A stretch of DNA of 64,000 nt, from NCBI RefSeq assembly GCF_054482525.1, contig NZ_CM137006.1. One strand, written 5' to 3'. Made by a program: the position numbers and the translations under genes. Of the stretch, positions 10,394-32,685 are shown piece by piece. Below the pieces are notes generated by a model that worked only from the letters and a program-made list of their open reading frames with translations, had not been told where the DNA came from and did no database searches. How positions within the stretch are numbered: position 1 is the stretch's first letter; the number at the start of each line of letters is the position of its first letter.

Positions 10394-10447
10394 TGTCGGA
10401 TCTTCCCTTACCCCACTGCGGGTAAGGGGCTAATAACAGGAACAACG

Positions 10448-11842: not shown

Positions 11843-11843
11843 T

Positions 11844-13322: not shown

Positions 13323-13393
13323 GTTGTTGTTTTAGGCACTGGCAATAAAAACAACAACATAACCTCACCTGGCATCAAATTTATGAGGAAAAA

Positions 13394-14674
13394 ATGAAAT
13401 TACTTATTCTGGGCAACCACACTTGCGGCAATCGTGGCGACAGCGCCATCCTGCGAGGCTTACTTGATGCCATCAACATCCTCAATCCACATGCCGAAGT
13501 GGACGTGATGAGCCGCTATCCGGTCAGTTCTTCCTGGCTACTCAACCGCCCGGTAATGGGCGATCCGCTGTTCCTGCAAATGAAACAACATAACAGCGCG
13601 GCGGGCGTTGTCGGGCGCGTTAAAAAAGTCCTCCGTCGCCGCTACCAGCATCAGGTATTGCTCTCACGCGTCACCGACACTGGCAAGCTGCGTAATATCG
13701 CCATCGCCCAGGGATTCACCGACTTCGTGCGCCTGCTGTCAGGTTACGACGCCATTATTCAGGTCGGCGGATCGTTTTTTGTCGATCTCTACGGCGTGCC
13801 GCAGTTTGAACATGCGCTTTGCACGTTTATGGCGAAAAAGCCGCTGTTTATGATTGGTCACAGCGTCGGCCCCTTCCAGGATGAGCAATTTAACCAACTG
13901 GCGAACTACGTTTTCGGTCACTGTGACGCGCTGATCCTGCGCGAGTCGGTTAGCCTCGATCTAATGAAACGCAGCAATATCACCACTGCAAAAGTGGAAC
14001 ATGGCGTCGATACCGCGTGGCTGGTCGATCACCACACAGAAGATTTCACCGCCAGCTATGCCGTCCAACACTGGCTGGACGTTGCCGCACAACAGAAAAC
14101 GGTGGCAATTACCCTGCGCGAACTGGCACCGTTCGACAAACGTCTCGGCACCACTCAACAAGCGTATGAAAAAGCCTTTGCCGGGTTGGTCAATCGCATT
14201 CTCGACGAAGGGTATCAGGTGATTGCGCTCTCCACCTGTACGGGCATCGACAGCTATAACAAAGACGACCGCATGGTGGCGCTCAACCTGCGCCAGCACA
14301 TCAGCGATCCTGCCCGTTATCACGTAGTGATGGATGAACTCAACGATCTGGAAATGGGCAAAATTCTCGGTGCCTGTGAACTCACCGTCGGTACGCGCCT
14401 GCACTCGGCTATTATCTCGATGAACTTTGCCACTCCGGCAATTGCCATCAACTATGAACATAAATCCGCCGGGATTATGCAGCAGCTGGGGCTGCAAGAG
14501 ATGGCGATTGATATCCGTCATTTATTAGACGGCAGCCTGCAAGCGATGGTTGCGGATACCTTAGGCCAGCTTCCGGCGCTGAATGCGCGACTTAGTGAAG
14601 CCGTCAGTCGTGAGCGTCAGACAGGAATGCAGATGGTGCAGTCAGTGCTTGAGCGCATCGGGGAGGCGAAATGA
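13394..14674 (+). CDS. wcaK: Colanic acid pyruvyl transferase WcaK
   Basis: 426 aa; polysaccharide pyruvyl transferase-like; synteny. Confidence 0.88.
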   Translation: MKLLILGNHTCGNRGDSAILRGLLDAINILNPHAEVDVMSRYPVSSSWLLNRPVMGDPLFLQMKQHNSAAGVVGRVKKVLRRRYQHQVLLSRVTDTGKLRNIAIAQGFTDFVRLLSGYDAIIQVGGSFFVDLYGVPQFEHALCTFMAKKPLFMIGHSVGPFQDEQFNQLANYVFGHCDALILRESVSLDLMKRSNITTAKVEHGVDTAWLVDHHTEDFTASYAVQHWLDVAAQQKTVAITLRELAPFDKRLGTTQQAYEKAFAGLVNRILDEGYQVIALSTCTGIDSYNKDDRMVALNLRQHISDPARYHVVMDELNDLEMGKILGACELTVGTRLHSAIISMNFATPAIAINYEHKSAGIMQQLGLQEMAIDIRHLLDGSLQAMVADTLGQLPALNARLSEAVSRERQTGMQMVQSVLERIGEAK

Positions 14675-15891
14675 AGGTCGGCTTCTTTTTACTGAAATTC
14701 CCGCTGTCGTCAGAAACCTTCGTCCTCAACCAAATCACTGCGTTTATTGATATGGGCTTTGAGGTGGAGATTGTCGCGCTGCAAAAAGGCGACACCCAGA
14801 ACACCCACGCGGCATGGACGAAATACAACCTTGCCGCCAGAACCCGCTGGTTACAGGACGAACCTACGGGCAAAGTGGCGAAGCTGCGCCACCGCGCCAG
14901 CCAGACCTTACGCGGCATTCATCGTAAAAATACCTGGCAGGCGCTCAACCTCAAACGCTATGGTGCCGAGTCGCGGAACCTGATTTTGTCTGCCATTTGC
15001 GGCCAGGTCGCAACACCGTTTCGCGCCGATGTGTTCATCGCTCATTTTGGCCCGGCGGGGGTAACCGCAGCAAAACTACGGGAACTGGGTGTCATTCGCG
15101 GCAAAATCGCTACTATCTTCCACGGCATTGATATCTCCAGTCGGGAAGTGCTCAACCACTACACCCCCGAATATCAGCAACTGTTTCGCCGTGGCGATTT
15201 GATGCTACCGATAAGCGAGCTGTGGGCCGGAAGGCTGCAAAAAATGGGCTGCCCGAGGGAAAAAATCGCCGTATCGCGCATGGGCGTGGACATGACGCGC
15301 TTTAGCCCGCGTCCGGTGAAAGCGCCCGCAACGCCGCTGGAAATCATTTCCGTCGCACGCTTAACCGAGAAAAAAGGCCTGCATGTGGCGATTGAAGCCT
15401 GCCGTCAGTTGAAAGAGCAGGGCGTGGCATTTCGCTATCGCATCCTCGGCATTGGCCCGTGGGAACGACGCCTGCGCACCCTCATCGAACAATATCAACT
15501 GGAAGATGTGGTGGAGATGCCGGGCTTTAAACCGAGCCATGAAGTGAAAGCGATGCTCGATGACGCGGATGTCTTCCTGTTGCCATCGGTAACGGGTGCG
15601 GACGGTGATATGGAAGGTATTCCGGTGGCACTAATGGAAGCGATGGCGGTCGGCATTCCAGTAGTTTCCACTCTGCATAGCGGAATACCGGAACTGGTAG
15701 AGGCCGATAAATCCGGCTGGCTGGTGCCTGAGAACGATGCTCGCGCACTGGCGCAACGACTGGCGGCGTTTAGCCAACTGGACACCGACGAACTGGCTCC
15801 GGTCGTCAAACGCGCACGCGAAAAAGTCGAACACGATTTTAACCAGCAGGTGATCAATCGAGAACTCGCCAGCTTGCTGCAGGCTTTATAG
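14671..15891 (+). CDS. wcaL: Colanic acid biosynthesis glycosyltransferase WcaL (GT4)
   Basis: 406 aa; GT4 motif region ([28 protein letters not shown]); 4-bp overlap with wcaK. Confidence 0.88.
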
Positions 15892-15901
15892 AGGAGAACG
15901 C

Positions 15902-17296
15902 ATGCCATTTAAAAAACTCTCCCGACGCACCTTCCTGACGGCAAGCTCGGCGCTTGCCTTCCTCCATACCCCTTTCGCTCGCGCACTTCCCGACCAACAG
16001 AGCGTTAACATTAACGACTACAACCCTCACGACTGGATCGCCTCATTTAAACAAGCCTTCAGCGAAGGGCAAACAGTCGTCGTGCCTGCCGGATTGGTTT
16101 GCGACAATATCAACACCGGCATCTTCATTCCTCCTGGCAAAACGTTACACATCCTTGGAAGCCTGCGCGGCAACGGCAGAGGGCGATTTGTTTTACAGGA
16201 CGGCAGCCAGGTGACAGGGGAGGAGGGCGGCAGTATGCATAACATCACCCTGGATGTGCGTGGTTCTGACTGCACCATCAAAGGGTTGGCGATGAGCGGC
16301 TTTGGCCCGGTAACGCAGATTTATATCGGCGGCAAAAACAAACGGGTCATGCGCAACCTGACCATCGATAACTTGACCGTTAGCCACGCTAATTACGCCA
16401 TTTTACGCCAGGGATTTCATAACCAGATTATCGGTGCCAACATCACCAACTGTAAGTTCAGCGACTTACAGGGCGACGCCATTGAATGGAACGTGGCAAT
16501 TAACGACAGTGATATTTTGATTTCCGACCACATCATCGAGCGCATCAACTGTACTAACGGAAAAATCAACTGGGGCATTGGCATAGGCCTTGCGGGAAGT
16601 ACCTACAATAACAATTACCCGGAAGACCAGACAGTGAAAAATTTTGTTGTGGCGAATATCACGGGATCGGATTGTCGGCAGTTGATACATGTTGAAAATG
16701 GTAAACATTTTGTTATTCGTAATATCAAAGCCCGCAATATCACACCGGATTTCAGTAAGAAAGCAGGTATTGATAACGCCACAGTTGCTATTTATGGTTG
16801 TGACAACTTTGTGATTGATAATATTGAAATGATTAATAGTGCCGGGATGTTAATCGGCTATGGGGTAATTAAAGGCAAATATCTCTCGATACCGCAGAAT
16901 TTCCGGGTGAATAATATTCAACTGGATAATACTCATCTTGCTTATAAATTGCGCGGCATTCAAATCTCCGCCGGGAATGCTGTCTCCTTTGTGGCGCTGA
17001 CTAACATTGAGATGAAGCGTGCGTCGCTGGAGTTACACAACAAACCGCAACATCTTTTTATGCGTAATATCAATGTGATGCAGGAATCCTCAGTTGGACC
17101 CGCATTGAGCATGAACTTCGACATGCGCAAAGACGTACGAGGTGTCTTTATGGCGAAAAAAGAAACACTGCTATCTCTTGCAAATGTTCATGCGGTGAAT
17201 GAAAGAGGGCAAAGCTCTGTCGATATCGACAGGATTAATCACCATATTGTTAATGTGGAAAAGATTAACTTTAGATTGCCGGAACGGAGGGAGTAG
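15902..17296 (+). CDS. wcaM: Colanic acid biosynthesis protein WcaM (secreted, beta-helix-like)
   Basis: 464 aa; N-terminal signal/Tat-like ([13 protein letters not shown]); last gene of wca cluster by synteny. Confidence 0.88.
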
Positions 17297-17453
17297 ATTT
17301 GCGACCATTCATAAACTTACTGGATATAATGTTCTAAAAGATTATAATCCTCACACTAACTGTTAAAGCTGGGGCTGGGCAGCATTGACTACTCAGGGAA
17401 GGTACTCATCTTTATCTTGTGTTTCTTACGTAACAACCAGACTAAAGTGATTT

Positions 17454-18449
17454 ATGAACGATAACGTTTTGCTCATAGGAGCTTCCGGATTCGTAGGAAC
17501 CCGACTACTTGAAACGGCAATTGCTGACTTTAATATCAAGAACCTGGACAAACAGCAGAGCCACTTTTATCCAGAAATCACACAGATTGGCGATGTTCGT
17601 GATCAACAGACACTCGACCAGGCGTTAGCCGGTTTTGACACTGTTGTACTACTGGCAGCGGAACACCGCGATGATGTCAGTCCTACTTCTCTCTATTATG
17701 ATGTCAACGTTCAGGGTACCCGCAATGTACTGGCGGCCATGGAAAAAAATGGCGTTAAAAATATCATCTTTACCAGTTCCGTTGCTGTTTATGGTTTGAA
17801 CAAACACAACCCTGACGAAAACCATCCACACGACCCTTTCAACCACTACGGCAAAAGTAAGTGGCAGGCAGAGGAGGTGCTGCGTGAATGGTATAACAAA
17901 GCACCAACAGAACGTTCATTAACCATCATCCGTCCTACCGTTATCTTCGGTGAACGCAACCGCGGTAACGTCTATAACTTGCTGAAACAGATCGCTGGCG
18001 GCAAGTTTATGATGGTGGGCGCAGGGACTAACTATAAGTCCATGGCTTATGTTGGAAACATTGTTGAGTTTATTAAGTACAAACTGAAGAATGTTGCCGC
18101 AGGTTATGAGGTTTATAACTACGTTGATAAGCCAGACCTGAACATGAACCAGTTGGTTGCTGAAGTTGAACAAAGCCTGAACAAAAAGATCCCTTCTATG
18201 CACTTGCCTTACCCACTAGGAATGCTGGGTGGATATTGCTTTGATATCCTGAGCAAAATTACGGGCAAAAAATACGCTGTCAGCTCTGTGCGCGTGAAAA
18301 AATTCTGCGCAACTACACAGTTTGACGCAACGAAAGTGCATTCTTCAGGTTTTGTGGCACCGTATACGCTGTCGCAAGGTCTGGATCGAACTCTGCAGTA
18401 TGAATTCGTCCATGCCAAAAAAGACGACATAACGTTTGTTTCTGAGTAA
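17454..18449 (+). CDS. gne: NAD-dependent sugar 4-epimerase (Gne-type; UDP-GlcNAc/GalNAc-related epimerase)
   Basis: 331 aa; N-terminal Rossmann GASGFVG; SDR-like YGKSK; located between wcaM and galF, where K-12 as I recall it has no gene but other E. coli lineages carry gne. Confidence 0.75.
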   Translation: MNDNVLLIGASGFVGTRLLETAIADFNIKNLDKQQSHFYPEITQIGDVRDQQTLDQALAGFDTVVLLAAEHRDDVSPTSLYYDVNVQGTRNVLAAMEKNGVKNIIFTSSVAVYGLNKHNPDENHPHDPFNHYGKSKWQAEEVLREWYNKAPTERSLTIIRPTVIFGERNRGNVYNLLKQIAGGKFMMVGAGTNYKSMAYVGNIVEFIKYKLKNVAAGYEVYNYVDKPDLNMNQLVAEVEQSLNKKIPSMHLPYPLGMLGGYCFDILSKITGKKYAVSSVRVKKFCATTQFDATKVHSSGFVAPYTLSQGLDRTLQYEFVHAKKDDITFVSE

Positions 18450-18691
18450 TGCAGACGAGTCAGAGAAAAAAGGACCAGGTTAGACTACGATTATTCGGAA
18501 AGAGGTACTGATTAAATTATCAGTATGTGGATTTCCGAGTAATCCGAGTAACCCAGATGCTGATGGTGTGTAGTGTTATCGTAAGGTTTAATCAAAGTTA
18601 TGCGGAGCTAAGCTTTGGTATATAGCCATAACGTTTGGCTAACCTATGGCAATAATTTACGCACTATCAGCCACTTAGAGGTAGGAAAAGA

Positions 18692-19585
18692 ATGACGAAT
18701 TTAAAAGCAGTTATACCGGTAGCAGGTCTTGGGATGCATATGTTGCCTGCCACTAAGGCGATACCCAAAGAGATGCTACCGATCGTCGACAAGCCAATGA
18801 TTCAGTACATTGTTGACGAGATTGTGGCTGCAGGGATCAAAGAAATCCTCCTGGTAACTCATGCGTCCAAGAACGCGGTCGAAAACCACTTCGACACCTC
18901 TTATGAATTAGAATCTCTCCTTGAACAGCGCGTGAAGCGTCAGCTGCTGGCGGAAGTGCAGTCGATCTGTCCACCGGGAGTGACCATTATGAACGTGCGT
19001 CAGGGCGAACCTTTAGGTTTAGGCCACTCCATTTTGTGTGCGCGACCCGCCATTGGCGACAACCCATTTGTCGTGGTACTGCCAGACGTAGTGATCGACG
19101 ACGCCAGCGCCGACCCGCTGCGCTACAACCTTGCTGCCATGATTGCGCGCTTCAATGAAACGGGCCGTAGCCAGGTGCTGGCAAAACGTATGCCGGGTGA
19201 CCTTTCTGAATACTCCGTTATTCAGACCAAAGAGCCGCTGGATCGTGAAGGCAAAGTCAGCCGCATTGTTGAATTTATCGAAAAACCGGATCAGCCGCAG
19301 ACGCTGGACTCAGACATCATGGCCGTTGGTCGCTATGTGCTTTCTGCGGATATTTGGCCGGAACTTGAACGCACTCAACCTGGTGCATGGGGGCGTATTC
19401 AGCTGACTGATGCCATTGCTGAACTGGCGAAAAAACAGTCCGTTGATGCAATGCTGATGACCGGTGACAGTTACGATTGTGGCAAGAAAATGGGCTATAT
19501 GCAGGCGTTTGTGAAGTATGGACTGCGCAACCTGAAAGAAGGGGCGAAGTTCCGTAAAGGTATTGAAAAGCTGTTAAGCGAATAA
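18692..19585 (+). CDS. galF: UTP-glucose-1-phosphate uridylyltransferase regulatory subunit GalF
   Basis: 297 aa; nucleotidyltransferase motif [23 protein letters not shown]; flanks O-antigen cluster as expected. Confidence 0.95.
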
Positions 19586-19838
19586 TGAAAATCTGACCGG
19601 ATGTAACGGTTGATAAGAAAATTATAACGGCGGTGAGGATTCGTGGGGCTAATTGTACTCATTGCCTCATTCTTTCTTTATACCGTTCTAAATATGAGTA
19701 ACAATAACTTTTCAATAGGCATTTATTGTGGGAGGCTGAGATTTTCTCCATCTCTGAAGCGATTTGGTAAAACGTTCAGAGTTAAGCTTTTCGAACTAAC
19801 CATAACGGTTAATGCTAGTTACAACTAGGACATGCATG

Positions 19839-19877
19839 CAGTACGCTGGTAGCTGTTGAGCCAGGGGCGGTAGCGTG
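19839..19877 (+). promoter_or_regulatory. JUMPstart element with ops site (GGCGGTAGCGTG) for RfaH-dependent antitermination
   Basis: Sequence cagtacgctggtagctgttgagccaggggcggtagcgtg read directly; 39-bp JUMPstart consensus ending in the 12-bp ops motif, ~80 bp upstream of the first O-antigen gene. Confidence 0.85.
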
Positions 19878-19957
19878 AATTAAATGTTTATCCCATATTA
19901 CTTAACAAATTGTAAACTATCGTGCAAAATAAGACTTGTTAAGTACGTAGGCTCGTT

Positions 19958-21193
19958 ATGTTAAAAAACATCATCTATTTATTAAGCGTTCAAGGTGGCA
20001 ATTATATATTTCCATTGGTCACACTGCCTTATCTTGTCAGGATCCTTGAACCTACAGGATACGGGATATATGGGTATAGTTTTGCTGTGGTCCAATATTT
20101 TATATTATTTATTGATTACGGATTTAACTACTCAGCGCCCAAAATCATATCAATATCAAGGGAAAATACTGATTCCATAAGTAAAGTTTTTTGGAATGTA
20201 ACGTTTATCAAAATAATTGCAGCATCTCTTGGTTTGTTAATTATTTATTTAATTTCGGAATTGAATATCATTGATTACCAAATTAAATTTATCATTCTTG
20301 CATACATATCTGTCGTAGGAAATTTAATATATCCAGTATGGTTTTTTCAAGGGCTGGAAAAAATGTTAGGAATAGCGATAAGTATGTTTTCCGCACGCTT
20401 ACTTACACTATGTTTAACATTTTTATTGGTTAAAAGTGAAAAGGATCTTGGTATAGCGATAACAATACAATCATCAATAACAGTTATTGCAGGTATAATA
20501 TCTACATATTTTTTATTTTCTCTTAAAAAAATAATATGGGTACCACCATCCTTATCCAAAATGAAAGAGTTAATTTATGATGGATGGCATTACTTCATTT
20601 CCTCTGCAGCAATAAGCCTTTATACTACTAGTTCAACAATAATATTAGGTGCATTATCAGGAACAACTGCAGTGGGATATTTTATCGCTGCAGATAAAAT
20701 TAGGCTTGCACTACAAGGCGTTATTGGTCCTATAACCCAAGCTGTTTTTCCTAGAGTAACTTATATAATGAAGGATAATCATGACGATGGACTATTATTA
20801 GCCAGGAAAGTGTTTCGATGGCAATTTTCACTGATGTTCGTACTTTCCATATTTCTTTACTTTTTTGCAGACGATATAATTTTAATCATGTATGGAAAAA
20901 CGTATCATGAATCTTTAGAAATACTCAAGGTTTTAGCTTTTACTCCAGCAATAGTTACGGTAAGTAATTATATTGCAATTTTAGTAATGATCCCTATTGG
21001 TATGAAAAAAGAATTTACAAAAATTATTACTACCAGTGGATTAATAGGCCTACTGATAATTACTTATTTGACTAATGAATACTCAGGAGTTGGTACAGCA
21101 ATAGGAGTTATTTCAACTGAGTTTATAATAATGGCGAGATTTTACTTTTTGATTAAGAAAACAAATAAATTAAATAATTTAAATTTATTGTAG
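19958..21193 (+). CDS. wzx: O-antigen flippase Wzx
   Basis: 411 aa, ~12 predicted TM segments, polysaccharide biosynthesis protein family N-terminus; AT-rich; first gene after JUMPstart. Confidence 0.75.
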   Translation: MLKNIIYLLSVQGGNYIFPLVTLPYLVRILEPTGYGIYGYSFAVVQYFILFIDYGFNYSAPKIISISRENTDSISKVFWNVTFIKIIAASLGLLIIYLISELNIIDYQIKFIILAYISVVGNLIYPVWFFQGLEKMLGIAISMFSARLLTLCLTFLLVKSEKDLGIAITIQSSITVIAGIISTYFLFSLKKIIWVPPSLSKMKELIYDGWHYFISSAAISLYTTSSTIILGALSGTTAVGYFIAADKIRLALQGVIGPITQAVFPRVTYIMKDNHDDGLLLARKVFRWQFSLMFVLSIFLYFFADDIILIMYGKTYHESLEILKVLAFTPAIVTVSNYIAILVMIPIGMKKEFTKIITTSGLIGLLIITYLTNEYSGVGTAIGVISTEFIIMARFYFLIKKTNKLNNLNLL

Positions 21194-21201
21194 GGCTAAC
21201 A

Positions 21202-21927
21202 ATGAATAAACCAACTTTAACAATAGTTACCGTTGTGTACAATGGCGAAATGTATATCGAAGATACTATAAAAAGTGTCTTATCACAAAACTGCAATGAT
21301 GACATTGAATATATTATAATTGATGGTGCATCAACGGATAATACTCTAAATATTGTTAATTCTTACAAAAATGAAATTTCATATATCATTTCTGAAAATG
21401 ATAATGGTATATATGATGCAATGAATAAAGGTGTGTTAAAAGCATCTGGAAATTATATAGGATTTATAAACGCTGATGATTTTTATAATAAAGATGTATT
21501 ATGTCAAGTAATAAAAGTAATGAAAGAAAATAAATATGATGTTATTTATGGAAATATGTCTTTGGTAGAGGCTGATAGCTTGGATGTTATTCAGGTCCGG
21601 AGGCCTAAAGACTGGAAACTACATATAGATATGAATTTAAGCCATCCGGCCACATTTATTAGAAAAGATATCCACAGAGAAAATTTATTTAATACTAGCT
21701 ATAAAATTGCTTCTGATTATGATCTTTTGCTAAAATTGAAGAAACAAGGTTATATCTTTCATTATATTGATAAAAATATCTCTTCGATGAGAAATGCCGG
21801 CCTTAGCGCTAAAAATGTAAAATTAGCATTGGAGGAAGCGAGACAAATCCGAAAGAAAAGAAACGGGAAATTATATGCGGCGTTAGCAGATATTTACCTA
21901 TTTATGAGAAAAGTTATAAAAAGATGA
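21202..21927 (+). CDS. Glycosyltransferase family 2 (WcaE-like)
   Basis: 241 aa; motifs IIDGASTDNT and [11 protein letters not shown] shared with WcaE (2355..3101). Confidence 0.8.
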   Translation: MNKPTLTIVTVVYNGEMYIEDTIKSVLSQNCNDDIEYIIIDGASTDNTLNIVNSYKNEISYIISENDNGIYDAMNKGVLKASGNYIGFINADDFYNKDVLCQVIKVMKENKYDVIYGNMSLVEADSLDVIQVRRPKDWKLHIDMNLSHPATFIRKDIHRENLFNTSYKIASDYDLLLKLKKQGYIFHYIDKNISSMRNAGLSAKNVKLALEEARQIRKKRNGKLYAALADIYLFMRKVIKR

Positions 21928-23159
21928 TTAATAGAAACATAAAAATTAGTGCTTCATTTATTTCAATAATTTATTTGCCTTTTGCTTTATTATTAGCAAT
22001 GATTGAAATGATTAATGGGGCCAGATGGAGTGTTTATGTATGTTCATTTATGCTAGGGGTACTAGCATTTTTGTTAATACCTTATGAAAATTGGGATTTG
22101 ACTAGGCATTATGAAACATATTTATATGTTAGTCAAACATCACTAAACAAAGTTTTTGAAAATAGTGACAATAGATATATTACAATAAATACTGTTATTT
22201 ATTTATTTAAATCTTTAGGAATAAAAAAAGAATTTTTACCTTTTTTTTCAACATTTTTATCATATATTTTTTATTTTAATATATATGTTAATCACATTAA
22301 AAAATACAATCCGGAATTATCTCATAGATGTATATATTTATATATTCTAATAAGCGTAATCCCATTTTTTGCTATAGCTAGTTCATTGCGGCAATATCTT
22401 GCATTTAGTATTATGCTTTATATGATCATACAGTATTTCACCAGTGAAAATAATAGGTATAAGTCACAAAAAATTATATTCTCTGCAATTATTTCATGTT
22501 GTATTCATCCCAGCGCAATACTATTGCTAGGTGTTTTTTTTGTTAGCAAATTAATAAGACTTAACAAAACAATATTGTATTTAATAATATTAGTTCTAAT
22601 CCTTAACCATGATGGATTAATATCTTCTTTGCTATTTCAATTGATTAGGCCATTATTGGAAAGCTTAGGTTTTTACTTTCCCGAATATATGGACTCTGTA
22701 ACCATAGGCATAAGCAATAGCTTGCTGAGCACTAATGAATATATCTTGAATAAGATCATATTACCGTCAGTGTTTTTTATTTTTACTTTTATCTATTTAA
22801 TTTTATTTAATAAAAAAATGACGAGGCAAGAGTCACAAATCAAAAATTTTTGCAGTTTACTTCTTTTGCTGATATGCCTTTTATCGTTATCGCCTGATTT
22901 ATTTTATCGATTTTCCATTTTCTGGGTGTTATTATATAGTTATATATTTTTCTCCTACGATATTAATAAAATTAGCAAACTATGTAAGCATCTGATCTTC
23001 TTAATACTCATTACCGCATGTTCAATCATAAATTTGGCACAGGCAAATATGGGTAAAGATATTATTTATGTGTCTTGGTGCGATATATTGTATAAGCCCT
23101 CATTATTCCTATTCAATAAAGAAGTTAAATCAGCAGAATATATAAGAGTGAGTCAATAA
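21924..23159 (+). CDS. wzy: O-antigen polymerase Wzy (putative)
   Basis: 411 aa, very hydrophobic, multiple TM helices, no soluble-enzyme motifs, very AT-rich; typical of Wzy in O-antigen clusters. Confidence 0.6.
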   Translation: MINRNIKISASFISIIYLPFALLLAMIEMINGARWSVYVCSFMLGVLAFLLIPYENWDLTRHYETYLYVSQTSLNKVFENSDNRYITINTVIYLFKSLGIKKEFLPFFSTFLSYIFYFNIYVNHIKKYNPELSHRCIYLYILISVIPFFAIASSLRQYLAFSIMLYMIIQYFTSENNRYKSQKIIFSAIISCCIHPSAILLLGVFFVSKLIRLNKTILYLIILVLILNHDGLISSLLFQLIRPLLESLGFYFPEYMDSVTIGISNSLLSTNEYILNKIILPSVFFIFTFIYLILFNKKMTRQESQIKNFCSLLLLLICLLSLSPDLFYRFSIFWVLLYSYIFFSYDINKISKLCKHLIFLILITACSIINLAQANMGKDIIYVSWCDILYKPSLFLFNKEVKSAEYIRVSQ

Positions 23160-23160
23160 A

Positions 23161-24228
23161 ATGTCCATTGGAGTCTTTAAGCTGTATGAAAATAAAATAG
23201 GTGGCACTGAGAAAGCAGTTGAAAATCTAATTGATATATTAACTAAAAACAGCCTACAAGTGAGATGTTTTTCAGCAATAAACGCACAAGAGATACAAGT
23301 TAGAGAAGATAATCGGAAAACCTACTTATTCCAAGACAATACTGCATATGAAGAAAGCAAATTAAGGTTTTACATTAAATATTTGTTTTTTTTGAGTGCC
23401 AAAAGTAAAGACCTTGAATTAATAATTTCCACGGATATAGCTACATCATCATTATTGTTATTGATTGGTTTTTTTCGGTGTAATAAGAATAAAATTATTT
23501 GCTGGGAACATTATCCATTTGACAAGAATAGTATTTTTTGGAGAAAAGTATTTAAATTTCTTTTGTCTCTTAATAAAAAAGCTGTAGTAGTTTGTAATTC
23601 TCACAAGGAAAAAGATAAGTTTACTTTTTGTAAAAGGGTTGTAATTATACCAAATTCAATCAAAACGCAAAAATATAAGCGCATACATCAAGGAAAAGAA
23701 ACTCTTGATTTGATTTATATTGGTCGGATTGTTAAAGATAAAGGAGTTGAAAGGTTAATTAATGCAGTAATAAATCACCCGTCTACAAAAAAGTATGTTT
23801 TACACATTGTAGGAGGTGGTCAAGAGCTGGAGTATCTCAAATCTAAATATAAGAATAACAACCAAATACACTTTCATGGACCGAGTTTAAACACAGATGT
23901 TTTTTTGGCAAAAAGTGATGTTTTTGTATCCGGTTCATACTTTGAATGTTTTCCTGTTACAATACTTGAAGCTATGTCCTACGGATTACCTGTAATTTCA
24001 ATGGATATATCTGGAGGGACAAGTAGCGTGATTTCTTCATCGGGTGGCGGATTTGTGTGTCAATCTCAAATTGAATTTCAGGAAAAACTAACTTACTTTG
24101 AAGATAATGTTAAACGAACCGAACACGGAAATGCAGGATTCCTATTCGTGAATAGACATTATACAGAAGAAATAGTTAGTGCTCAGTGGATGAGTTTGAT
24201 CAATCGAGCCAATAGTCAAGAAAATTAA
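23161..24228 (+). CDS. Glycosyltransferase family 4 (GT1 fold)
   Basis: 355 aa; C-terminal motif FPVTILEAMSYGLPVIS typical of retaining GT4 enzymes. Confidence 0.75.
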   Translation: MSIGVFKLYENKIGGTEKAVENLIDILTKNSLQVRCFSAINAQEIQVREDNRKTYLFQDNTAYEESKLRFYIKYLFFLSAKSKDLELIISTDIATSSLLLLIGFFRCNKNKIICWEHYPFDKNSIFWRKVFKFLLSLNKKAVVVCNSHKEKDKFTFCKRVVIIPNSIKTQKYKRIHQGKETLDLIYIGRIVKDKGVERLINAVINHPSTKKYVLHIVGGGQELEYLKSKYKNNNQIHFHGPSLNTDVFLAKSDVFVSGSYFECFPVTILEAMSYGLPVISMDISGGTSSVISSSGGGFVCQSQIEFQEKLTYFEDNVKRTEHGNAGFLFVNRHYTEEIVSAQWMSLINRANSQEN

Positions 24229-24248
24229 GGTATTGGAGCTATTAAAGT

Positions 24249-25265
24249 ATGAGCATACTTGTGACTGGTGGGGCTGGCTATATTGGCTCACATGCTATAT
24301 TAACTTTATTGCAAAATGGATATGATGTTATATCGCTAGATAATTATTGCAATTCCTCTCCAAAATCTCTAGAACGAGTAGAGGAAATTTGCTTATCTAA
24401 GATAAAAAAATTACGTGGTGATATTAGAGATAGACATATATTAAAAAATATCTTTTCAAAATATAATGTTTCTACTGTAATGCATTTTGCGGGTTTAAAA
24501 TCTGTTAACGAGTCCATTAAAAAACCATTAGAATATTACGACACAAATCTTTTGGGGACTCTAATATTACTTGATGAAATGCAGAAAGCGAATATTTCTA
24601 ATCTAATTTTTAGTTCGTCTGCTACTGTCTATGGCAATCCTCATTATGTTCCAATATCTGAAAAACACCCTGTCGGTGAGGTGATCAATCCGTACGGTCG
24701 TTCAAAGTTTATGGTGGAACATATATTGCGTGATTTTTGTAACGCGAATAGCGACGCAAATATCACAATACTAAGATATTTTAATCCTGTAGGTGCTCAT
24801 AAGACTGGATTAATTGGAGAAGATCCTTTAGGAACTCCTAATAACCTGTTTCCCTATGTTGCGCAAGTCGCAATTGGAAAATTACCCTATCTAAATGTTT
24901 TTGGTAATAAATATATGACAAAAGATGGAACAGGTGTAAGAGATTATATCCATGTAGTCGATTTAGTTGAGGGGCATCTTGCCGCTTTAAAAAATCTCAA
25001 TAGAAACCGGGGGCTTAAAGTTTTTAATTTAGGCACTGGTCAAGGTTATAGTGTGTTAGATATCATCGACGCTTTTAAACTGGAAACAGGACGCGATATA
25101 CCTTTCCGTATCGTTTCTGAGCGAAATGGAGATGTGGCTGAATGTTGGTCCGATCCTTCCTTAGCAAACGAGCAGCTAAGTTGGGTTGCTAAAAGGACTC
25201 TTAATAATATGGTGGAAGATGCATGGAGATGGCAAACAATGAATCCAAATGGATATAAAGAGTAA
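24249..25265 (+). CDS. UDP-glucose/UDP-galactose 4-epimerase (GalE family) encoded inside the O-antigen cluster
   Basis: 338 aa; TGGAGYIGSH Rossmann motif, SSSATVYG and YGRSK catalytic motifs of GalE-type epimerases. Confidence 0.85.
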   Translation: MSILVTGGAGYIGSHAILTLLQNGYDVISLDNYCNSSPKSLERVEEICLSKIKKLRGDIRDRHILKNIFSKYNVSTVMHFAGLKSVNESIKKPLEYYDTNLLGTLILLDEMQKANISNLIFSSSATVYGNPHYVPISEKHPVGEVINPYGRSKFMVEHILRDFCNANSDANITILRYFNPVGAHKTGLIGEDPLGTPNNLFPYVAQVAIGKLPYLNVFGNKYMTKDGTGVRDYIHVVDLVEGHLAALKNLNRNRGLKVFNLGTGQGYSVLDIIDAFKLETGRDIPFRIVSERNGDVAECWSDPSLANEQLSWVAKRTLNNMVEDAWRWQTMNPNGYKE

Positions 25266-25333
25266 ATTGAAACAATTATAATCATCCATTTCATTGCTTA
25301 CTGTATTGTTATCTATATATATGAAAACAAAAA

Positions 25334-26341
25334 ATGAAAATATTATATGATGGGATTGTGAAAAGTTTACAATCATATGGTGGTATCACTGTATACTTTG
25401 AAGAAATCATTAAGAGATTAAAAAATGACGAATACAAATTCATTCAATTTAATGATAAAAATGAAAATCACAATGATGATCTCCATCGGCCATGCCGGTT
25501 TTTAGAACGATATAGATGTTTTGAAGCATTAAAAAGTGATTCAGATTACAGTATATTTCATTCTACATATTATCGGGTTCCGAAAGATGGGGAATATGCG
25601 GTTGTGACCACGGTCCACGATTTCACATATGAATTGTATATGAAAGGACTTCGGCGCAATGTTCATAGCTTACAAAAAAGATGGGCTGTGAAACATAGCG
25701 ATGCAATCATTTGTGTCTCTAATAATACAGCCAAGGATTTAATTAATTTCTTTAAGGTTGATGAAAAAAAGATACATGTTATTCATAATGGTGTATCGGA
25801 AGATTATAGACACTTAAATCTAGAAAAAGAAAATTTTGTGCTTTTTGTCGGTGCTCGTTCAGGATATAAAAATTTTGAGCTTGCAGTTAAAGCCGTTTCT
25901 AAACTTTTTGATACTAATCTTAAAATAGTCGGCGGAGGTGGTTTAAATAAAGCAGAAATGAAGTTACTATCTGAATATCTTCCAGAAAGATTCCAGTACT
26001 TAGGGAAGGTATCAAATGAAAAACTAAATATATTATATAATTCGGCTTATTGCTTAATCTATCCTTCAGAATATGAAGGGTTTGGAATTCCCTTGCTTGA
26101 GGCTATGCGAACTGGCTGTCCTGTGATAGCCGTAAATAGATCATCAATACCCGAGGTTGTGGGGGATAGTGCGATTTTAGTCGAAGAAGTATCAATTGAA
26201 AGTTTATTCTCAGCTTTATTAAGTGTAGAAGCTAACGCTAATGAATTAAAAAATAAAGGATTAGCGCAATCTAATAAATTTTCATGGGGGAAGTGTTTCT
26301 CCGAAACATATAATCTATATAAATCACTATCTAAGTTTTGA
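25334..26341 (+). CDS. Glycosyltransferase family 4
   Basis: 335 aa; [21 protein letters not shown] motif (E-x7-E). Confidence 0.78.
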
Positions 26342-26351
26342 GAGGTTATTT

Positions 26352-27473
26352 ATGTGTAAGAAAGCTTTAATTACAGGAATTACCGGGCAAGATGGTTCCT
26401 ACTTGGCAGAATTTCTGCTTAAAAAAGGCTATGAGGTTCATGGAATAAAACGTCGATCTTCCTTGTTTAATACTGACCGTATTGATCATATATATCAAGA
26501 CCCACACCATCGTAATTTAAAATTACAACTTCATTATGGTGATTTAACAGATACTTCTAATTTGACTCGGATATTATCTGAAGTTCAACCTGATGAAGTT
26601 TATAATCTTGGCGCAATGAGTCACGTAGCTGTTTCCTTCGAATCCCCAGAATATACAGCTGATGTTGATGCTATAGGTACTTTACGATTATTGGAAGCTA
26701 TTCGTTTTTTGGGATTAGAAAAAAAAACCCGATTTTATCAGGCGTCAACCTCTGAATTGTATGGATTAGTTCAGGAAGTTCCACAAAAAGAGACAACGCC
26801 GTTCTATCCTCGTTCACCTTATGCCGTAGCTAAACTGTATGCATATTGGATCACTGTAAACTATCGTGAGTCTTATGGAATGTATGCATGTAACGGTATT
26901 TTGTTCAATCATGAATCCCCACGTCGTGGGGAAACGTTTGTAACACGTAAAATCACACGTGCTATAGCTAATATATCGCAGGGAATAGAAAAATGCTTAT
27001 ATCTTGGCAACATGGATTCTTTACGCGATTGGGGGCATGCGAAAGATTATGTTCGTATGCAATGGATGATGCTTCAACAAGACCAGCCAGAAGACTTTGT
27101 TATTGCCACCGGCAAACAAATATCTGTACGTGAATTTGTCCGTATGTCTGCTAAAGAAGTTGGACTTGAACTTGAGTTTTCCGGTACTGGTGTTGATGAG
27201 ATTGCATTTGTTGTAAATAAAACATCAGATTGCGCCGTTGGTGTTAATATTGGTGATGTTATTGTTCGCGTTGACCCTCGTTATTTTCGACCAGCAGAAG
27301 TTGAAACTCTTCTTGGTGATCCAACAAAAGCAAAAAATGTCTTGGGTTGGGAGCCAGAGATTACAGTTGAAGAAATGTGTGCAGAAATGGTGGCTAGTGA
27401 TTTAGAAAAAGCTAAACAGCATGCACTTCTTAAAAGCCATGGTTTTGACGTGGCAGTCTCTTTGGAGCGTTAA
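26352..27473 (+). CDS. gmd: GDP-mannose 4,6-dehydratase (O-antigen copy, low GC)
   Basis: 373 aa; protein highly similar to colanic acid Gmd (3691..4812) but with divergent, AT-richer codon usage. Confidence 0.93.
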
Positions 27474-27476
27474 AGT

Positions 27477-28442
27477 ATGACCAAGAAGCGAATTTTTGTG
27501 GCTGGACATCGTGGGATGGTTGGTTCTGCTATTTGTCGTCAATTATTAGCACGTAATGATGTTGAGTTAATTGTCAAAACTCACAAAGAACTCGATTTGA
27601 CAGTTCAAAAGGATGTTGAATGTTTTTTTGAGCAAGAGAGAATAGATCAGGTTTACCTTGCAGCAGCAAAAGTAGGAGGAATTCATGCTAATAACACTTT
27701 TCCAGCTGAATTTATTTATCAGAACCTTCTTATTGAAAGCAATATTATTCACTCATCTTACAAAGCGGGCATAAAGAAACTATTATTCTTAGGGTCAAGT
27801 TGTATCTATCCAAAGTTTGCAGAACAGCCAATGAAAGAATCTGCACTTTTGACGGGAACTCTTGAGCCTACTAATGAGCCTTATGCTATTTCCAAAATAG
27901 CAGGTATAAAGCTATGTGAATCTTATAATCGCCAATATGGATGTGATTATCGCAGTGTAATGCCTACTAACTTATATGGTATGAATGATAATTTTCATCC
28001 CAATAACTCACATGTAATTCCAGCGCTTATGCGGCGTTTTCATGAAGCAAAGGAACTTGGTTTAAATGAAGTGGTTGTCTGGGGAACGGGAACTCCAAAA
28101 CGCGAGTTTTTATATGTTGATGATATGGCCGCTGCATCAGTATATGTGATGGAGCTTGATGATGAAATTTATAAAAAAAATACTCAACCAATGTTATCTC
28201 ATATTAACGTAGGTACTGGTGTTGATTGTTCCATACGTGAAATGGCAGAAACAATGGCTTTAGTTGTTGGCTATGATGGAAAAATTGTTTTTGATATAAC
28301 AAAACCAGATGGTTCGCCTCGTAAACTTATGGATGTTACACGCCTTGAGAATTTGGGTTGGAAATATCGTTATAATTTAAAACAAGGACTAGAATTAACA
28401 TATAAATGGTTTATAAATAATCTTGACTCATTTAGGAGTTAA
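27477..28442 (+). CDS. fcl: GDP-L-fucose synthase (O-antigen copy)
   Basis: 321 aa; paralogue of 4815..5780 with the same motifs. Confidence 0.93.
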
Positions 28443-28444
28443 TA

Positions 28445-28900
28445 TTGAACAAGAGATTAGAAACAGAGTTATTTAAATCAATAGTTGAACATACTCCACT
28501 AATCTCGATAGACCTTATTATAAGAAACGAAGATGGTAAGGCGCTGCTTGGTCAGCGCCTTAATCGTCCAGCACAAAATTATTGGTTTGTGCCGGGGGGA
28601 CGGATTCTTAAAGATGAGTCTTTCGAGAACGCATTCAAAAGAGTTACTTTAGAAGAATTGGGTGTTCAAATTAGCATTAATGAAGCAAAATTTCTTGGGA
28701 TTTATGAACATTTCTACAGCGACAATTTTTCTGGGACTTGTTTTTCAACTCATTATGTCGTACACGGATATGAGATTAGTTTGATGCCACATCAAATTAA
28801 CTATCCAACACTACAACATAGTACTTACAATTGGTTCGATATAGCCGAATTGTTAGCTAATTCCTCAGTTCATCAGTACACAAAAAATTATTTTAAGTGA
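28445..28900 (+). CDS. gmm: GDP-mannose mannosyl hydrolase (O-antigen copy; apparent TTG start)
   Basis: 151 aa; aligns with colanic acid Gmm (NRPAQ.YWFVPGG); no in-frame ATG near the start, TTG at 28445 just after the fcl stop. Confidence 0.8.
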   Translation: MNKRLETELFKSIVEHTPLISIDLIIRNEDGKALLGQRLNRPAQNYWFVPGGRILKDESFENAFKRVTLEELGVQISINEAKFLGIYEHFYSDNFSGTCFSTHYVVHGYEISLMPHQINYPTLQHSTYNWFDIAELLANSSVHQYTKNYFK

Positions 28901-28911
28901 AGGTTATTTAT

Positions 28912-30297
28912 ATGCTACTTCCTGTTGTAATGGCCGGTGGTTCTGGAACTAGATTGTGGCCACTTTCTCGAACACTATATCCGAAGCAATTCCTATCGTT
29001 AACTAGTCGTTTGACTATGCTACAAGAGACCTTAAGAAGGCTTGAAGGGGTTGAACATCGTCCTGCTCTGGTTATTTGTAATGAAGTTCATCGTTTTATC
29101 GTTGCAGAACAGATGCGTAATGTAAATTTAGCGAATAGTGGCATTTTACTAGAGCCGATAGGTCGTAATACAGCCCCCGCAGTTGCGCTTGCTGCTCTTA
29201 AAGCGATTTCATCAGGTGAGGATCCAATACTGCTTGTACTAGCAGCCGATCATGAAATACAAGACCAAAAGCGCTTTATATCGTCAATATTGGCTGCAAA
29301 AGAATTTGCAGAGGAAGGTAAGCTGGTAACTTTTGGTATTGTGCCAACCAAACCCGAAACTGGATATGGCTACATAAAAACCGGAGAAAATTTAAATGAA
29401 TATGGTTTTAAAGTTTCTGCTTTTGTTGAAAAGCCTGAGCTAGATGTGGCCAAAAAATATCTTGAAGATGGAGATTATCTTTGGAATAGTGGAATATTCA
29501 TGTTTAGGGCTTCTGTGTTTATTGATGAGTTGAATAAATTTAGACCAGACATACTAAAAATATGCCAACAAGCATTGAAGTCCTCTACACAAGATCTTGA
29601 TTTTATCCGTATAGATAATGACTCATTTAGTTGTTGCCCTGAAGAATCCATTGATTACGCTGTTATGGAGAAAACAACAGAGGCTGTGGTAGTTCCATTA
29701 AATGCCCACTGGAGCGATGTTGGTTCTTGGTCTGCATTATGGGAAATTAGCAGAAAAGATAAAAGTGGAAATGCAATTAGAGGAGATGTATTAATTCATG
29801 ATTCTTCTGACAGTTATCTTTACTCACAACATAGATTAATTGGTGTAGTAGGAGTTAAAGATTTAGTAGTTGTTGAAACTAAAGATGCTATTCTCGTTGC
29901 GCATAAAGATAAAGTTCAACAGGTAAAAAATATTGTAGAAAAACTTAAAGTTAATAACCGTACGGAATATCTGCAGCATCGTGAAATATTTAGGCCATGG
30001 GGCAGTCATGACTCTATAGCGGAAGGATCTCGATTTGAGGTTAAACATGTCGTTATTCATCCTGGACATAAAACTGCTAAACAGATTCATTACCATCGTA
30101 CTGAGCATTGGATTGTTGTTTCTGGAACAGCAAAAGTCCATTATGAAGATGAAATATTTCTTGTTTCTGAAAATGAATCAACTTATATACCAATAGGTGT
30201 ACCTCATTTTATTGAGAATCCAGGAAAGATCCCTTTGGAGATTATTGAGGTACGTTCAGGTGTCTACTTGGATGAAGATGATGTTGTTAGAATCTAA
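28912..30297 (+). CDS. manC: Mannose-1-phosphate guanylyltransferase (O-antigen copy)
   Basis: ORF 28897..30297; start chosen at [16 protein letters not shown] (ATG 28912) by alignment with CpsB; low-GC paralogue. Confidence 0.9.
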   Translation: MLLPVVMAGGSGTRLWPLSRTLYPKQFLSLTSRLTMLQETLRRLEGVEHRPALVICNEVHRFIVAEQMRNVNLANSGILLEPIGRNTAPAVALAALKAISSGEDPILLVLAADHEIQDQKRFISSILAAKEFAEEGKLVTFGIVPTKPETGYGYIKTGENLNEYGFKVSAFVEKPELDVAKKYLEDGDYLWNSGIFMFRASVFIDELNKFRPDILKICQQALKSSTQDLDFIRIDNDSFSCCPEESIDYAVMEKTTEAVVVPLNAHWSDVGSWSALWEISRKDKSGNAIRGDVLIHDSSDSYLYSQHRLIGVVGVKDLVVVETKDAILVAHKDKVQQVKNIVEKLKVNNRTEYLQHREIFRPWGSHDSIAEGSRFEVKHVVIHPGHKTAKQIHYHRTEHWIVVSGTAKVHYEDEIFLVSENESTYIPIGVPHFIENPGKIPLEIIEVRSGVYLDEDDVVRI

Positions 30298-30368
30298 AAT
30301 GATGCTGGATACTAATGCAACATTATTATTCGTAATGCTGTACTGACGTTATTTAATTATGATTATTA

Positions 30369-31127
30369 TTGGATGTTAAAATGAAAGTCAGTATTATTAC
30401 AGTGACTTATAATAGTGAAAAGACTTTAAGGGATACTTTAGAGTCAATAGAGTTGCAAACCTATAAAGATATAGAGTATATAATTATTGATGGTGGTTCT
30501 ACAGATAATACGTTAAAACTAATTAACGAAGTATCAACAAGAGTAACCAAATGTCTATCAGAAAGCGATAACGGTATCTATGATGCTTTAAATAAAGGTA
30601 TAAATTTATCTACGGGAGATATTATTGGATTCGTTCATTCTGATGACCTTTTAGCAAGACCTGATATTATTGAAACTATTGTAAGCCGTTTCCATGAGAC
30701 AAAAGCGGATGTTGTATACGGTGATTTGGTTTTTTTCGAAAAAAACCAAACTGATATAATCAAACGATACTGGCGTAGTGGTCCTTTTAAACGTTCTAAG
30801 CTATCATTAGGCTGGGCACCACCGCATCCATCTTTCTATATGAGGAGGGAATTATATAAAGACGATGGATATTTTGATTTATCCTATAGGATTGCTGCAG
30901 ACTATGATCAGATGGTCAGGATTTTGAAACGTGATGATATTAAAGTTATTTATGTTCCTCAAGTATTTGTAAAGATGAGATTGGGTGGGGAAAGTACCAG
31001 AATTGATAACGCGATATCAAGTACAAAGGAAATTGTAGAAGTTATGAAAAACCATAATGTAAATTGGAAAATTGCTATCATTATCAGAAAAATCTCAAAA
31101 CTAATGCAATTGTTTGCGCATAAATAA
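30369..31127 (+). CDS. Glycosyltransferase family 2 (WcaE-like), inserted between manC and manB
   Basis: 252 aa; IIDGGSTDNT and DNGIYDALNKG motifs; start may be the internal Met at 30381. Confidence 0.8.
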   Translation: MDVKMKVSIITVTYNSEKTLRDTLESIELQTYKDIEYIIIDGGSTDNTLKLINEVSTRVTKCLSESDNGIYDALNKGINLSTGDIIGFVHSDDLLARPDIIETIVSRFHETKADVVYGDLVFFEKNQTDIIKRYWRSGPFKRSKLSLGWAPPHPSFYMRRELYKDDGYFDLSYRIAADYDQMVRILKRDDIKVIYVPQVFVKMRLGGESTRIDNAISSTKEIVEVMKNHNVNWKIAIIIRKISKLMQLFAHK

Positions 31128-31151
31128 TTTTATTATTGGTAAGGTTTTTAT

Positions 31152-32522
31152 ATGAAAAAATTAACCTGCTTTAAAGCCTATGATATTCGCGGGAAATTAG
31201 GCGAAGAACTGAATGAAGATATTGCGTGGCGCATTGGTCGCGCCTATGGCGAATTTCTCAAACCGAAAACCATTGTGTTAGGCGGTGACGTCCGCCTCAC
31301 CAGCGAAACCTTAAAACTGGCGCTGGCGAGAGGTTTACAGGATGCGGGCGTCGATGTGCTGGATATCGGCATGTCCGGCACCGAAGAGATCTATTTCGCC
31401 ACGTTCCATCTCGGCGTGGATGGCGGCATTGAAGTTACCGCCAGCCATAATCCGATGGATTATAACGGCATGAAGCTGGTTCGCGAGGGGGCTCGCCCGA
31501 TCAGCGGAGATACCGGACTGCGCGACGTCCAGCGTCTGGCTGAAGCCAACGACTTTCCTCCCGTCGATGAAACCAAACGCGGTCGCTATCAGCAAATCAA
31601 CCTGCGTGACGCTTACGTTGATCACCTGTTCGGTTATATCAATGTCAAAAACCTCACGCCGCTCAAGCTGGTGATCAACTCCGGGAACGGCGCAGCGGGT
31701 CCGGTGGTGGACGCTATCGAAGCCCGCTTTAAAGCCCTCGGCGCACCTGTGGAATTGATCAAAGTGCACAACACGCCGGACGGCAATTTCCCCAACGGTA
31801 TTCCTAACCCGCTGCTGCCGGAATGTCGCGACGACACCCGCAATGCGGTCATTAAACACGGCGCGGATATGGGCATTGCCTTTGATGGCGATTTTGACCG
31901 CTGTTTCCTGTTTGACGAAAAAGGGCAGTTTATCGAGGGCTACTACATTGTCGGCCTGCTGGCAGAAGCGTTCCTCGAAAAAAATCCCGGCGCGAAGATC
32001 ATCCACGATCCACGTCTCTCCTGGAATACCGTTGATGTGGTGACCGCCGCGGGCGGCACACCGGTGATGTCGAAAACCGGACACGCCTTTATTAAAGAAC
32101 GTATGCGCAAGGAAGACGCCATCTACGGTGGCGAAATGAGCGCCCACCACTATTTCCGTGATTTCGCTTACTGCGACAGCGGCATGATCCCGTGGCTGCT
32201 GGTCGCCGAACTGGTGTGTCTGAAAGGAAAAACGCTGGGCGAACTGGTGCGCGACCGGATGGCAGCGTTTCCGGCAAGCGGTGAGATCAACAGCAAACTG
32301 GCGCAACCCGCTGAGGCGATTAATCGCGTCGAACAGCATTTTAGCCGTGAGGCGCTGGCGGTGGATCGCACCGATGGCATCAGCATGACCTTTGCCGACT
32401 GGCGCTTTAACCTGCGCTCCTCCAACACCGAACCGGTGGTGCGCCTGAATGTGGAATCGCGCGGTGATGTGCCGCTGATGGAAGAAAAGACAAAACTTAT
32501 CCTTGCGTTATTGAACAAGTAA
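31152..32522 (+). CDS. manB: Phosphomannomutase (O-antigen copy; mosaic, near-identical to cpsG over most of its length)
   Basis: 456 aa; spot comparisons of 60-bp blocks against 9023..10393 show 0-3 mismatches each; only the last ~40-50 bp diverge. Confidence 0.93.
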
Positions 32523-32685
32523 TTCAGTAATTTCATATAAATAAGTTTTAAAAGACGGAAAAGATGAGATATTCAGTGTGGTATAGCAAAGGTACTGCTA
32601 TTCACCATCTCTATGAGTGAGTTAACATCTATACCACATTTAAGCCGCACACTCGGCGGTGAACACCCCCTGACAGGAGTATACA

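Follow-up and report, generated by a model that had tools for sequence, protein, structure and literature searches.

A mosaic manB with a colanic-acid-like body and a foreign 3' tail at the end of an Escherichia coli O11 O-antigen cluster

The manB gene at the 3' end of an E. coli O11 O-antigen cluster is a mosaic. Its body resembles cpsG, the phosphomannomutase gene of the colanic-acid (wca) cluster, and is joined near the 3' end to a short AT-rich tail of foreign type. We analyzed it in a window of 64,000 nucleotides (contig NZ_CM137006.1 of NCBI RefSeq assembly GCF_054482525.1), the features of which are listed in Table 1. Very probably, manB is a functional gene that was overwritten by cpsG-type sequence a long time ago, has continued to exchange its body since then, and forms a deletion-prone repeat together with cpsG. 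Colanic-acid-like manB genes in O-antigen clusters and deletions between manB and cpsG are already known. The case is therefore nothing new in kind, and its significance lies chiefly in annotation and genome stability.

The position of manB between galF and gnd, and that of the second copy, cpsG, in the wca cluster, were taken from the map of open reading frames (ORFs) and from the way in which identical or near-identical genomes are annotated. Over 19600-32700, the O-antigen region shows 100% identity to that of E. coli PCN033 and SCU-102. PGAP labels wzx and wzy of the PCN033/SCU-102 type 'O11 family', and the cluster is present in 65 complete genomes. For the GT2 gene upstream of manB, a profile search returned weak matches only, all to the GT2 family.

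Table 1. Features of the window around the cpsG/manB pair (positions are those of the window)
Feature	Position	Strand	Remarks
wca (colanic-acid) genes	up to ~17300		
cpsB	7485-8921		upstream neighbour of cpsG
cpsG, phosphomannomutase gene of the colanic-acid cluster	9023..10393	+	ORF and NF011943; between cpsB and wcaJ
Proximal copy of the direct repeat	9023-10355	+	cpsG nt 1-1333
Segment lost by a cpsG x manB crossover	10356..31151	+	wcaJ, wzxC, wcaK, wcaL, wcaM, gne/gnu-type epimerase gene, galF, O11 wzx to GT2
wcaJ	10448-11842		downstream neighbour of cpsG
gne/gnu-type epimerase gene	17454-18449		
galF	18692-19585		
Low-GC O11 cluster	19958-31127		wzx, GT2, wzy, GT, galE, GT4, gmd, fcl, gmm, manC, GT2
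GT2 glycosyltransferase gene	30369..31127	+	last low-GC O-cluster gene before manB
manB, phosphomannomutase gene	31152..32522	+	456 aa, intact; 3' end of the O11 cluster; ORF and NCBIfam NF011943
Colanic-acid-like tract, distal copy of the direct repeat	31152..32484	+	manB nt 1-1333; ungapped against 9023-10355
AT-rich 3' tail of manB	32485..32522	+	includes the stop codon
manB-gnd intergenic region	32523..32685	+	common to several O-groups along with the tail
gnd, ugd, wzz, then his operon (minus strand)	beyond manB		

The two ORFs are of equal length (1371 nt, 456 aa each) and align without gaps. From nt 1 to nt 1333, manB differs from the resident cpsG at 45 sites, corresponding to 96.6% identity, whereas 17 of the remaining 38 nt (nt 1334-1371) are mismatched. 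In a maximum-chi-square analysis, nt 1333 was the last position before the breakpoint (Fisher p = 2e-14), which corresponds to 32484/32485 in manB and 10355/10356 in cpsG. When both genes were compared by BLAST with 600-nt flanks, the homology started with the ATG and ended with nt 1333, and the flanks were unrelated on both sides. According to the list of codons, nt 1-1333 contain 40 codons with silent differences and five in which the amino acid is changed. The body of manB has a GC content of 0.558 (GC3 0.65), compared to 0.33 in the tail, 0.32 in the upstream GT2 gene, 0.37 in manC, and 0.32-0.39 in the neighbours overall. A nucleotide identity to cpsG above 95% and a host-like GC content amid low-GC neighbours are hallmarks of a colanic-acid-like manB, and the resident gene displays both.

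These results agree with the initial annotation in that manB is a mosaic with boundaries at the ATG and nt 1333, and in that it is GC-rich, unlike the genes around it. The pairwise alignment proposed there as a check revealed no uniform divergence of 20-30%. Several details had to be adjusted. Mismatches per 60-nt block are indeed few, but they range from 0 to 5 and not from 0 to 3. The tail is divergent and AT-rich as described, but it comprises 38 nt instead of about 40-50 bp. The 3' breakpoint is abrupt, yet the tract in front of it cannot be called near-identical, because 96.6% is ordinary allelic divergence in E. coli. Finally, a breakpoint had been assigned to the start of manB, where the homology does begin; the GT2 gene invoked for this assignment is merely the last low-GC gene that is specific to the O-unit.

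The product of manB matched the NCBIfam model NF011943 ('phosphomannomutase CpsG'), a member family of the alpha-D-phosphohexomutase superfamily, over residues 1-456 of 456 with 1052.7 bits (cut-off 801). The cpsG product gave 1052.9 bits, likewise over its full length. The motifs TASHNP (position 96), DGDFDR (245), and GEMSAHHY (327) are present in the manB product. In this superfamily, TASHNP is the catalytic phosphoserine loop, DGDFDR the metal-binding loop, and GEMSAHH the sugar-binding loop. Judged by its sequence, manB most likely supplies mannose-1-phosphate for the synthesis of GDP-fucose in the O11 unit, and it should be interchangeable with cpsG. In PCN033, PGAP gave manB the name cpsG. 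Annotation pipelines name O-antigen manB 'cpsG', and short-read assemblies or variant callers can mix up both copies.

Neither this strain nor O11 is alone in having the junction at nt 1333, which is older than this strain. The manB genes of O7, O43, and O125ac carry the same AT-rich tail, which starts at the same nucleotide as in O11, and manB with an O11-type tail and the downstream intergenic region was found in 433 of 5,426 complete genomes. Tail and intergenic region are 93.5-100% identical to those of the window in the further O11, O125ac, and O43 clusters that were compared. Two further kinds of tail exist. In O157, manB ends in KLMEKKTKALLKLLSE, has its junction about 12 nt earlier, and differs from O11 in the third codon. 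In O75, a third kind of tail (QVMVIHTQEILSILTS) is combined with a different 5' end. These different tails and 5' codons indicate at least three separate origins. The tail had been suggested to be a leftover of the original O-cluster gene; the distinct tails in O11/O7-type, O157, and O75 clusters fit this suggestion, and the 38 nt are accordingly consistent with a remnant of a different manB lineage.

We propose that the low-GC manB of the O-antigen cluster was at some point overwritten by cpsG-type sequence from its start codon to nt 1333, so that the last 38 nt would be all that is left of the original gene. The overwrite would have taken place long before this strain arose, as the junction is found next to gnd in O7, O11, O43, and O125ac and in a Citrobacter genome. 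Since then, the body would have been subject to homologous recombination and gene conversion with cpsG and with other manB alleles within E. coli. As there is no homology before the ATG or after nt 1333, such exchange could not run beyond either point. That the transfer went from cpsG to manB is suggested by the GC content and by the published interpretation.

A degenerate pattern of the tail peptide was scanned over species-representative genomes and had two matches. One of them, in a metagenome-assembled genome of Candidatus Firestonebacteria, was dismissed as a source of the tail: it is a chance match without manB homology. The other lies in Citrobacter braakii ATCC 51113, where a gene with a homologous tail is located directly upstream of gnd. 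Its tail agrees with the O11 tail at 25 of 35 positions and with the cpsG tail at 13 of 35, the manB-gnd intergenic region can be aligned too, and the body is 81% identical to E. coli. We considered this gene as an unconverted ancestor and rejected it, since it is a high-GC deletion hybrid; the genome holds the hybrid only, so the value of 81% refers to the body of the hybrid. A low-GC, unconverted manB with this tail was not found in the scan of the species-representative genomes.

Between the two genera, tail and intergenic region have diverged by about 20-30%, roughly as much as the body (19%). On these grounds, a manB bearing the tail ('EEKTKLIL') next to gnd might predate the split of Escherichia and Citrobacter. 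In that case, nt 1333 would be an ancient and stable boundary of concerted evolution instead of the scar of a discrete replacement; the body would have been homogenised continuously with cpsG in both genera, and the 38-nt tail would have stayed clear of this process over tens of millions of years. We regard this reading as tentative, with the balance leaning against it. If it is true, the cpsG/manB pair is a natural system for the limits of conversion tracts and the lifetime of homology boundaries.

The exchange of the body was analyzed in a small sample of 16 sequences, one manB and one cpsG from each of eight genomes. Four of these are O11, and the others are O43, O7, O125ac, and O157; differences between pairs were scored over nt 13-1333. 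Within a genome, manB and cpsG differed at 38-54 sites (mean 45.9), and between genomes at 36-62 sites (mean 47.6). The mean numbers of differing sites were 43.9 for pairs of manB and 45.5 for pairs of cpsG. Copies from the same genome were not closer to each other than copies from different genomes (45.9 vs. 47.6, permutation p = 0.12, eight genomes), and homogenisation is visible at the level of the species, not of the genome. The 16 sequences have 162 polymorphic sites, of which none separates manB from cpsG as a fixed difference and 66 vary in both genes. The four-gamete test was failed by 1,943 of the 3,828 pairs of informative sites, and at least 42 recombination events are required (Rmin). 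Even within the tail class of O11, O7, O43, and O125ac, manB alleles differ at up to 61 sites. The alleles of the two genes thus belong to a single mosaic pool in E. coli and are about 3-4% apart. Continued exchange of the body with cpsG and with other manB alleles would unite the paralogs in such a pool, and we infer that it is this exchange, and not repeated fresh replacement, that maintains it.

The tails themselves lend some weight to a different explanation, in which cpsG replaced manB several times in the past, independently and once per tail class, and no exchange between manB and cpsG followed. The shared polymorphisms would then go back to separate captures of cpsG alleles and to inter-strain recombination confined to manB. 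Indeed, the three tail classes (O11/O7-type, O157, and O75) differ in their 5' codons, and the divergence of manB among O11 strains coincides with that of tail, intergenic region, and gnd, which fits crossovers during the transfer of O-clusters and not local conversion. However, one tail class alone spans 61 differences, and 66 shared polymorphisms with no fixed difference are hard to obtain from a single capture without later exchange with cpsG. Moreover, gene conversion was the process that Iguchi 2011 proposed for manB of O157 (PMC3158064). True conversion between manB and cpsG and repeated independent replacements are inseparable given the frequent inter-strain recombination at each locus. 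We nevertheless consider independent replacements without later exchange improbable, and favour an old overwrite followed by continued exchange.

The initial annotation had seen in manB the signature of gene conversion between the two loci of this genome. Accordingly, either in this strain or just before it arose, in its immediate ancestor, the resident cpsG would have overwritten manB as far as nt 1333. With a distance of 22 kb, the copies have the same orientation, and the homology ends sharply at the ATG and at nt 1333, as would be expected from such an event. The sequence differences do not bear it out: the 45 sites that separate the resident pair are not fewer than those between manB and foreign cpsG genes (36-62), and the cpsG of the O125ac strain, with 36 differences, is nearer to manB than the resident one. 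The manB body matches cpsG in nearly all E. coli genomes that possess this gene: matches were obtained at 5,712 places in 4,677 E. coli genomes, so that about 1,000 genomes should have two copies. Among the matches listed, the identities were 95.4-97.7%, and the resident cpsG (96.6%) ranked mid-range. A recent conversion tract between the resident copies was sought by sliding window, KS test, and longest identical run, and none was found. The mismatches are evenly spread (KS p = 0.22) and thus give no sign of a recent tract, and an identical run as long as the longest one (132 nt) can be accounted for by chance (p = 0.35). There is also no conversion tract with an identifiable donor in this genome. 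In addition, the manB allele occurs at an identity of at least 99% in 56 genomes, and the junction is common to other O-groups. Recent conversion within this genome is thus effectively refuted, and we consider it highly improbable. The idea that the resemblance is an artefact of repeat collapse in the assembly, or convergence under purifying selection on the enzyme, has nothing to recommend it beyond both genes encoding the same enzyme, and it is already refuted with next to no probability left, because the 45 differences are for the most part synonymous while all other synonymous sites agree, because gmd-fcl, the other duplicated pathway genes, are under similar constraint and only 68% identical between the O-cluster and the wca cluster, and because dozens of complete genomes have the arrangement independently.

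In the account that we prefer, manB would behave like gnd, as flanking DNA of species-level diversity in which replacements of the O-cluster cross over. In the O11 strains 48 and ES7, identity to the window is 99.3-99.9% from wzx to GT2 and 96.3-97.1% from the ATG of manB onward, and the lower identity persists through the tail, the intergenic region, and gnd. The manB of the O11 strain MRY15-117 is 99.85% identical to that of the window. Hence, the O11 genes from wzx to GT2 are 99.3-100% identical, and in two of the three other O11 strains manB diverges to the degree typical of flanking genes in the species. The last GT2 gene is 99.6-100% identical to that of the window in O125ac and in all three further O11 clusters. 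Since identity drops exactly at manB, the gene belongs to the conserved 3' arm, where crossovers take place when O-clusters are replaced. For O-antigen switching, manB therefore represents conserved flanking DNA for cluster swaps.

The clusters of O11, O125ac, and O43 have a 3' module in common, gmd-fcl-gmm-manC-GT2-manB. Comparing the O43 strain PEC408 (locus L005, 23718-29885) with positions 26352-32522 of the window, we observed a stepwise rise in identity toward the 3' end: 82% in gmd, 86% in fcl, 91% in gmm, 96.4% in manC, and 96.8% in GT2. This resembles the divergence gradients described in Salmonella, which adjoin serogroup-specific regions (PMC3715488). Among the three other O11 genomes, two have a cpsG annotated as frameshifted next to an intact manB, namely strain 48 (locus L004, 22897-24266) and MRY15-117 (locus L009, 5737-7108). 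This could be explained by decay that redundancy permits or by homopolymer sequencing errors. In ES7, wzy is split by IS1 and manC has an internal stop (locus L010, 20090-22102 and 27855-29240), and this strain is therefore probably O-rough.

The colanic-acid-like tract and its counterpart in cpsG constitute a direct repeat of 1,333 nt with a spacing of 22,129 bp, and this length far exceeds the minimum of homology for a RecA-type deletion. In a repeat search over positions 1-40000 of the window, they were the only direct repeat of at least 100 nt with high identity (96%). An unequal homologous crossover between the copies would remove everything from wcaJ through the O-antigen genes and leave a single cpsG::manB hybrid, and deletion products of this kind are known from other strains. 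The expectation that a direct repeat of 1.3 kb would serve as a substrate for deletions has been confirmed by the E. coli long-term evolution experiment (PMC4173774) and by genomes with natural deletions. In that experiment, manB and cpsG are 96% identical, and seven rearrangements arose when they recombined with each other; the cpsG-manB interval was lost in 10 of 12 populations, and the equivalent deletion in REL606, of 23,293 bp, was recurrent (PMC4173774). A chimeric CpsG-ManB protein resulting from the deletion was described in a 2026 preprint (bioRxiv 10.64898/2026.06.14.732165).

To find natural deletions, we searched E. coli genomes with a synthetic cpsB-manB-gnd query. Among the matches listed, eleven extended over the query from base 1 onward in genomes with one matching place each, and four of them were checked by annotation. 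FDAARGOS_1249, VREC0864, the O157:H7 strain 7.1_Anguil, and the O75 strain JNEC-KY173 each have a single cpsG::manB hybrid in the stretch from cpsB to gnd. All four are devoid of wcaJ-wcaM, galF, and the O-antigen genes; in some of them, perB or wzx stands before gnd. For 7.1_Anguil, the alleles of the O157:H7 strain F8952 were used as parental references. The hybrid is of the cpsG type at 43 of 43 diagnostic sites up to nt 1113 and of the manB type at 25 of 25 from nt 1123, indicating one clean crossover between nt 1113 and nt 1123. In this way, the distal part of the colanic-acid genes is lost in one step together with the entire O-antigen cluster, which gives rise to rough, untypeable variants. 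The evolution experiment provides examples of such losses, as do a few sequenced isolates, O157:H7 among them.

The C. braakii locus (NZ_NAEW01000002.1; locus L012, 11419-13375, minus strand) consists of cpsB, a cpsG-like gene with a manB-type tail, and gnd-ugd-wzz-his. Such an order of genes would be expected if a cpsG x manB deletion had taken out the distal part of the colanic-acid genes together with the entire O-antigen cluster. In the O75 cluster of E. coli D2 (locus L016, 8557-11434), both manC and manB are colanic-acid-like, PGAP names them cpsB and cpsG, and wzx is located between manB and gnd. Together, the two genes form a longer repeat with the wca cluster, of about 2.7 kb. Some E. 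coli genomes have up to six places that match manB; the cpsG-manB interval might be amplified in tandem there, as a duplication that mirrors the deletion.

The closest known system is that of REL606 (E. coli B, O7-type rfb), which, like the O11 strain, has a direct cpsG/manB pair with 96% identity and a spacing of about 22-23 kb (Raeside et al. 2014, PMC4173774); deletions were observed in REL606 and not in this O11 strain. In place of REL606, we compared the manB of the wild O7 strain PCP07083. It agrees with O11 in its AT-rich tail and in the position of the junction at nt 1333, but its 5' end is different and two codons shorter, and it follows directly after manC, whereas a GT2 gene separates manC and manB in O11. 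The O157 manB is similar to that of O11 in several respects: a high-GC body more than 95% identical to cpsG lies in a low-GC O-cluster, natural deletion hybrids exist, and divergence between strains exceeds that of the rest of the cluster, for which gene conversion was proposed (PMC3158064). Replacement of the O157 manB by the colanic-acid gene goes back to Samuel et al. 2004 (J Bacteriol 186:6536), as cited in Iguchi 2011 (PMC3158064). With its own tail, earlier junction, and different third codon, the O157 gene is unlike that of O11, which points to an independent origin. In Salmonella enterica, Jensen and Reeves reportedly described, in 2001, many O-groups with a manB nearly identical to the colanic-acid one. 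These genes reportedly have a higher GC content than manC and are subspecies-specific, not O-group-specific; they would be of the same kind as the O11 manB, in a different species. In Reeves 2013 (PMC3715488) and a 2019 FEMS review (PMC7685785), there is nothing specific on manB mosaicism or the O11 cluster.

Chi sites (GCTGGTGG) were looked for in both copies as a possible cause of the boundaries, and none was found; the nearest are located at 7356 and 10612. According to a scan of the window, cpsG, manB, and the low-GC O-cluster are free of Chi sites. Across the whole window, Chi sites are in excess, with nine compared to 1.9 expected, and eight of the nine are on the plus strand.
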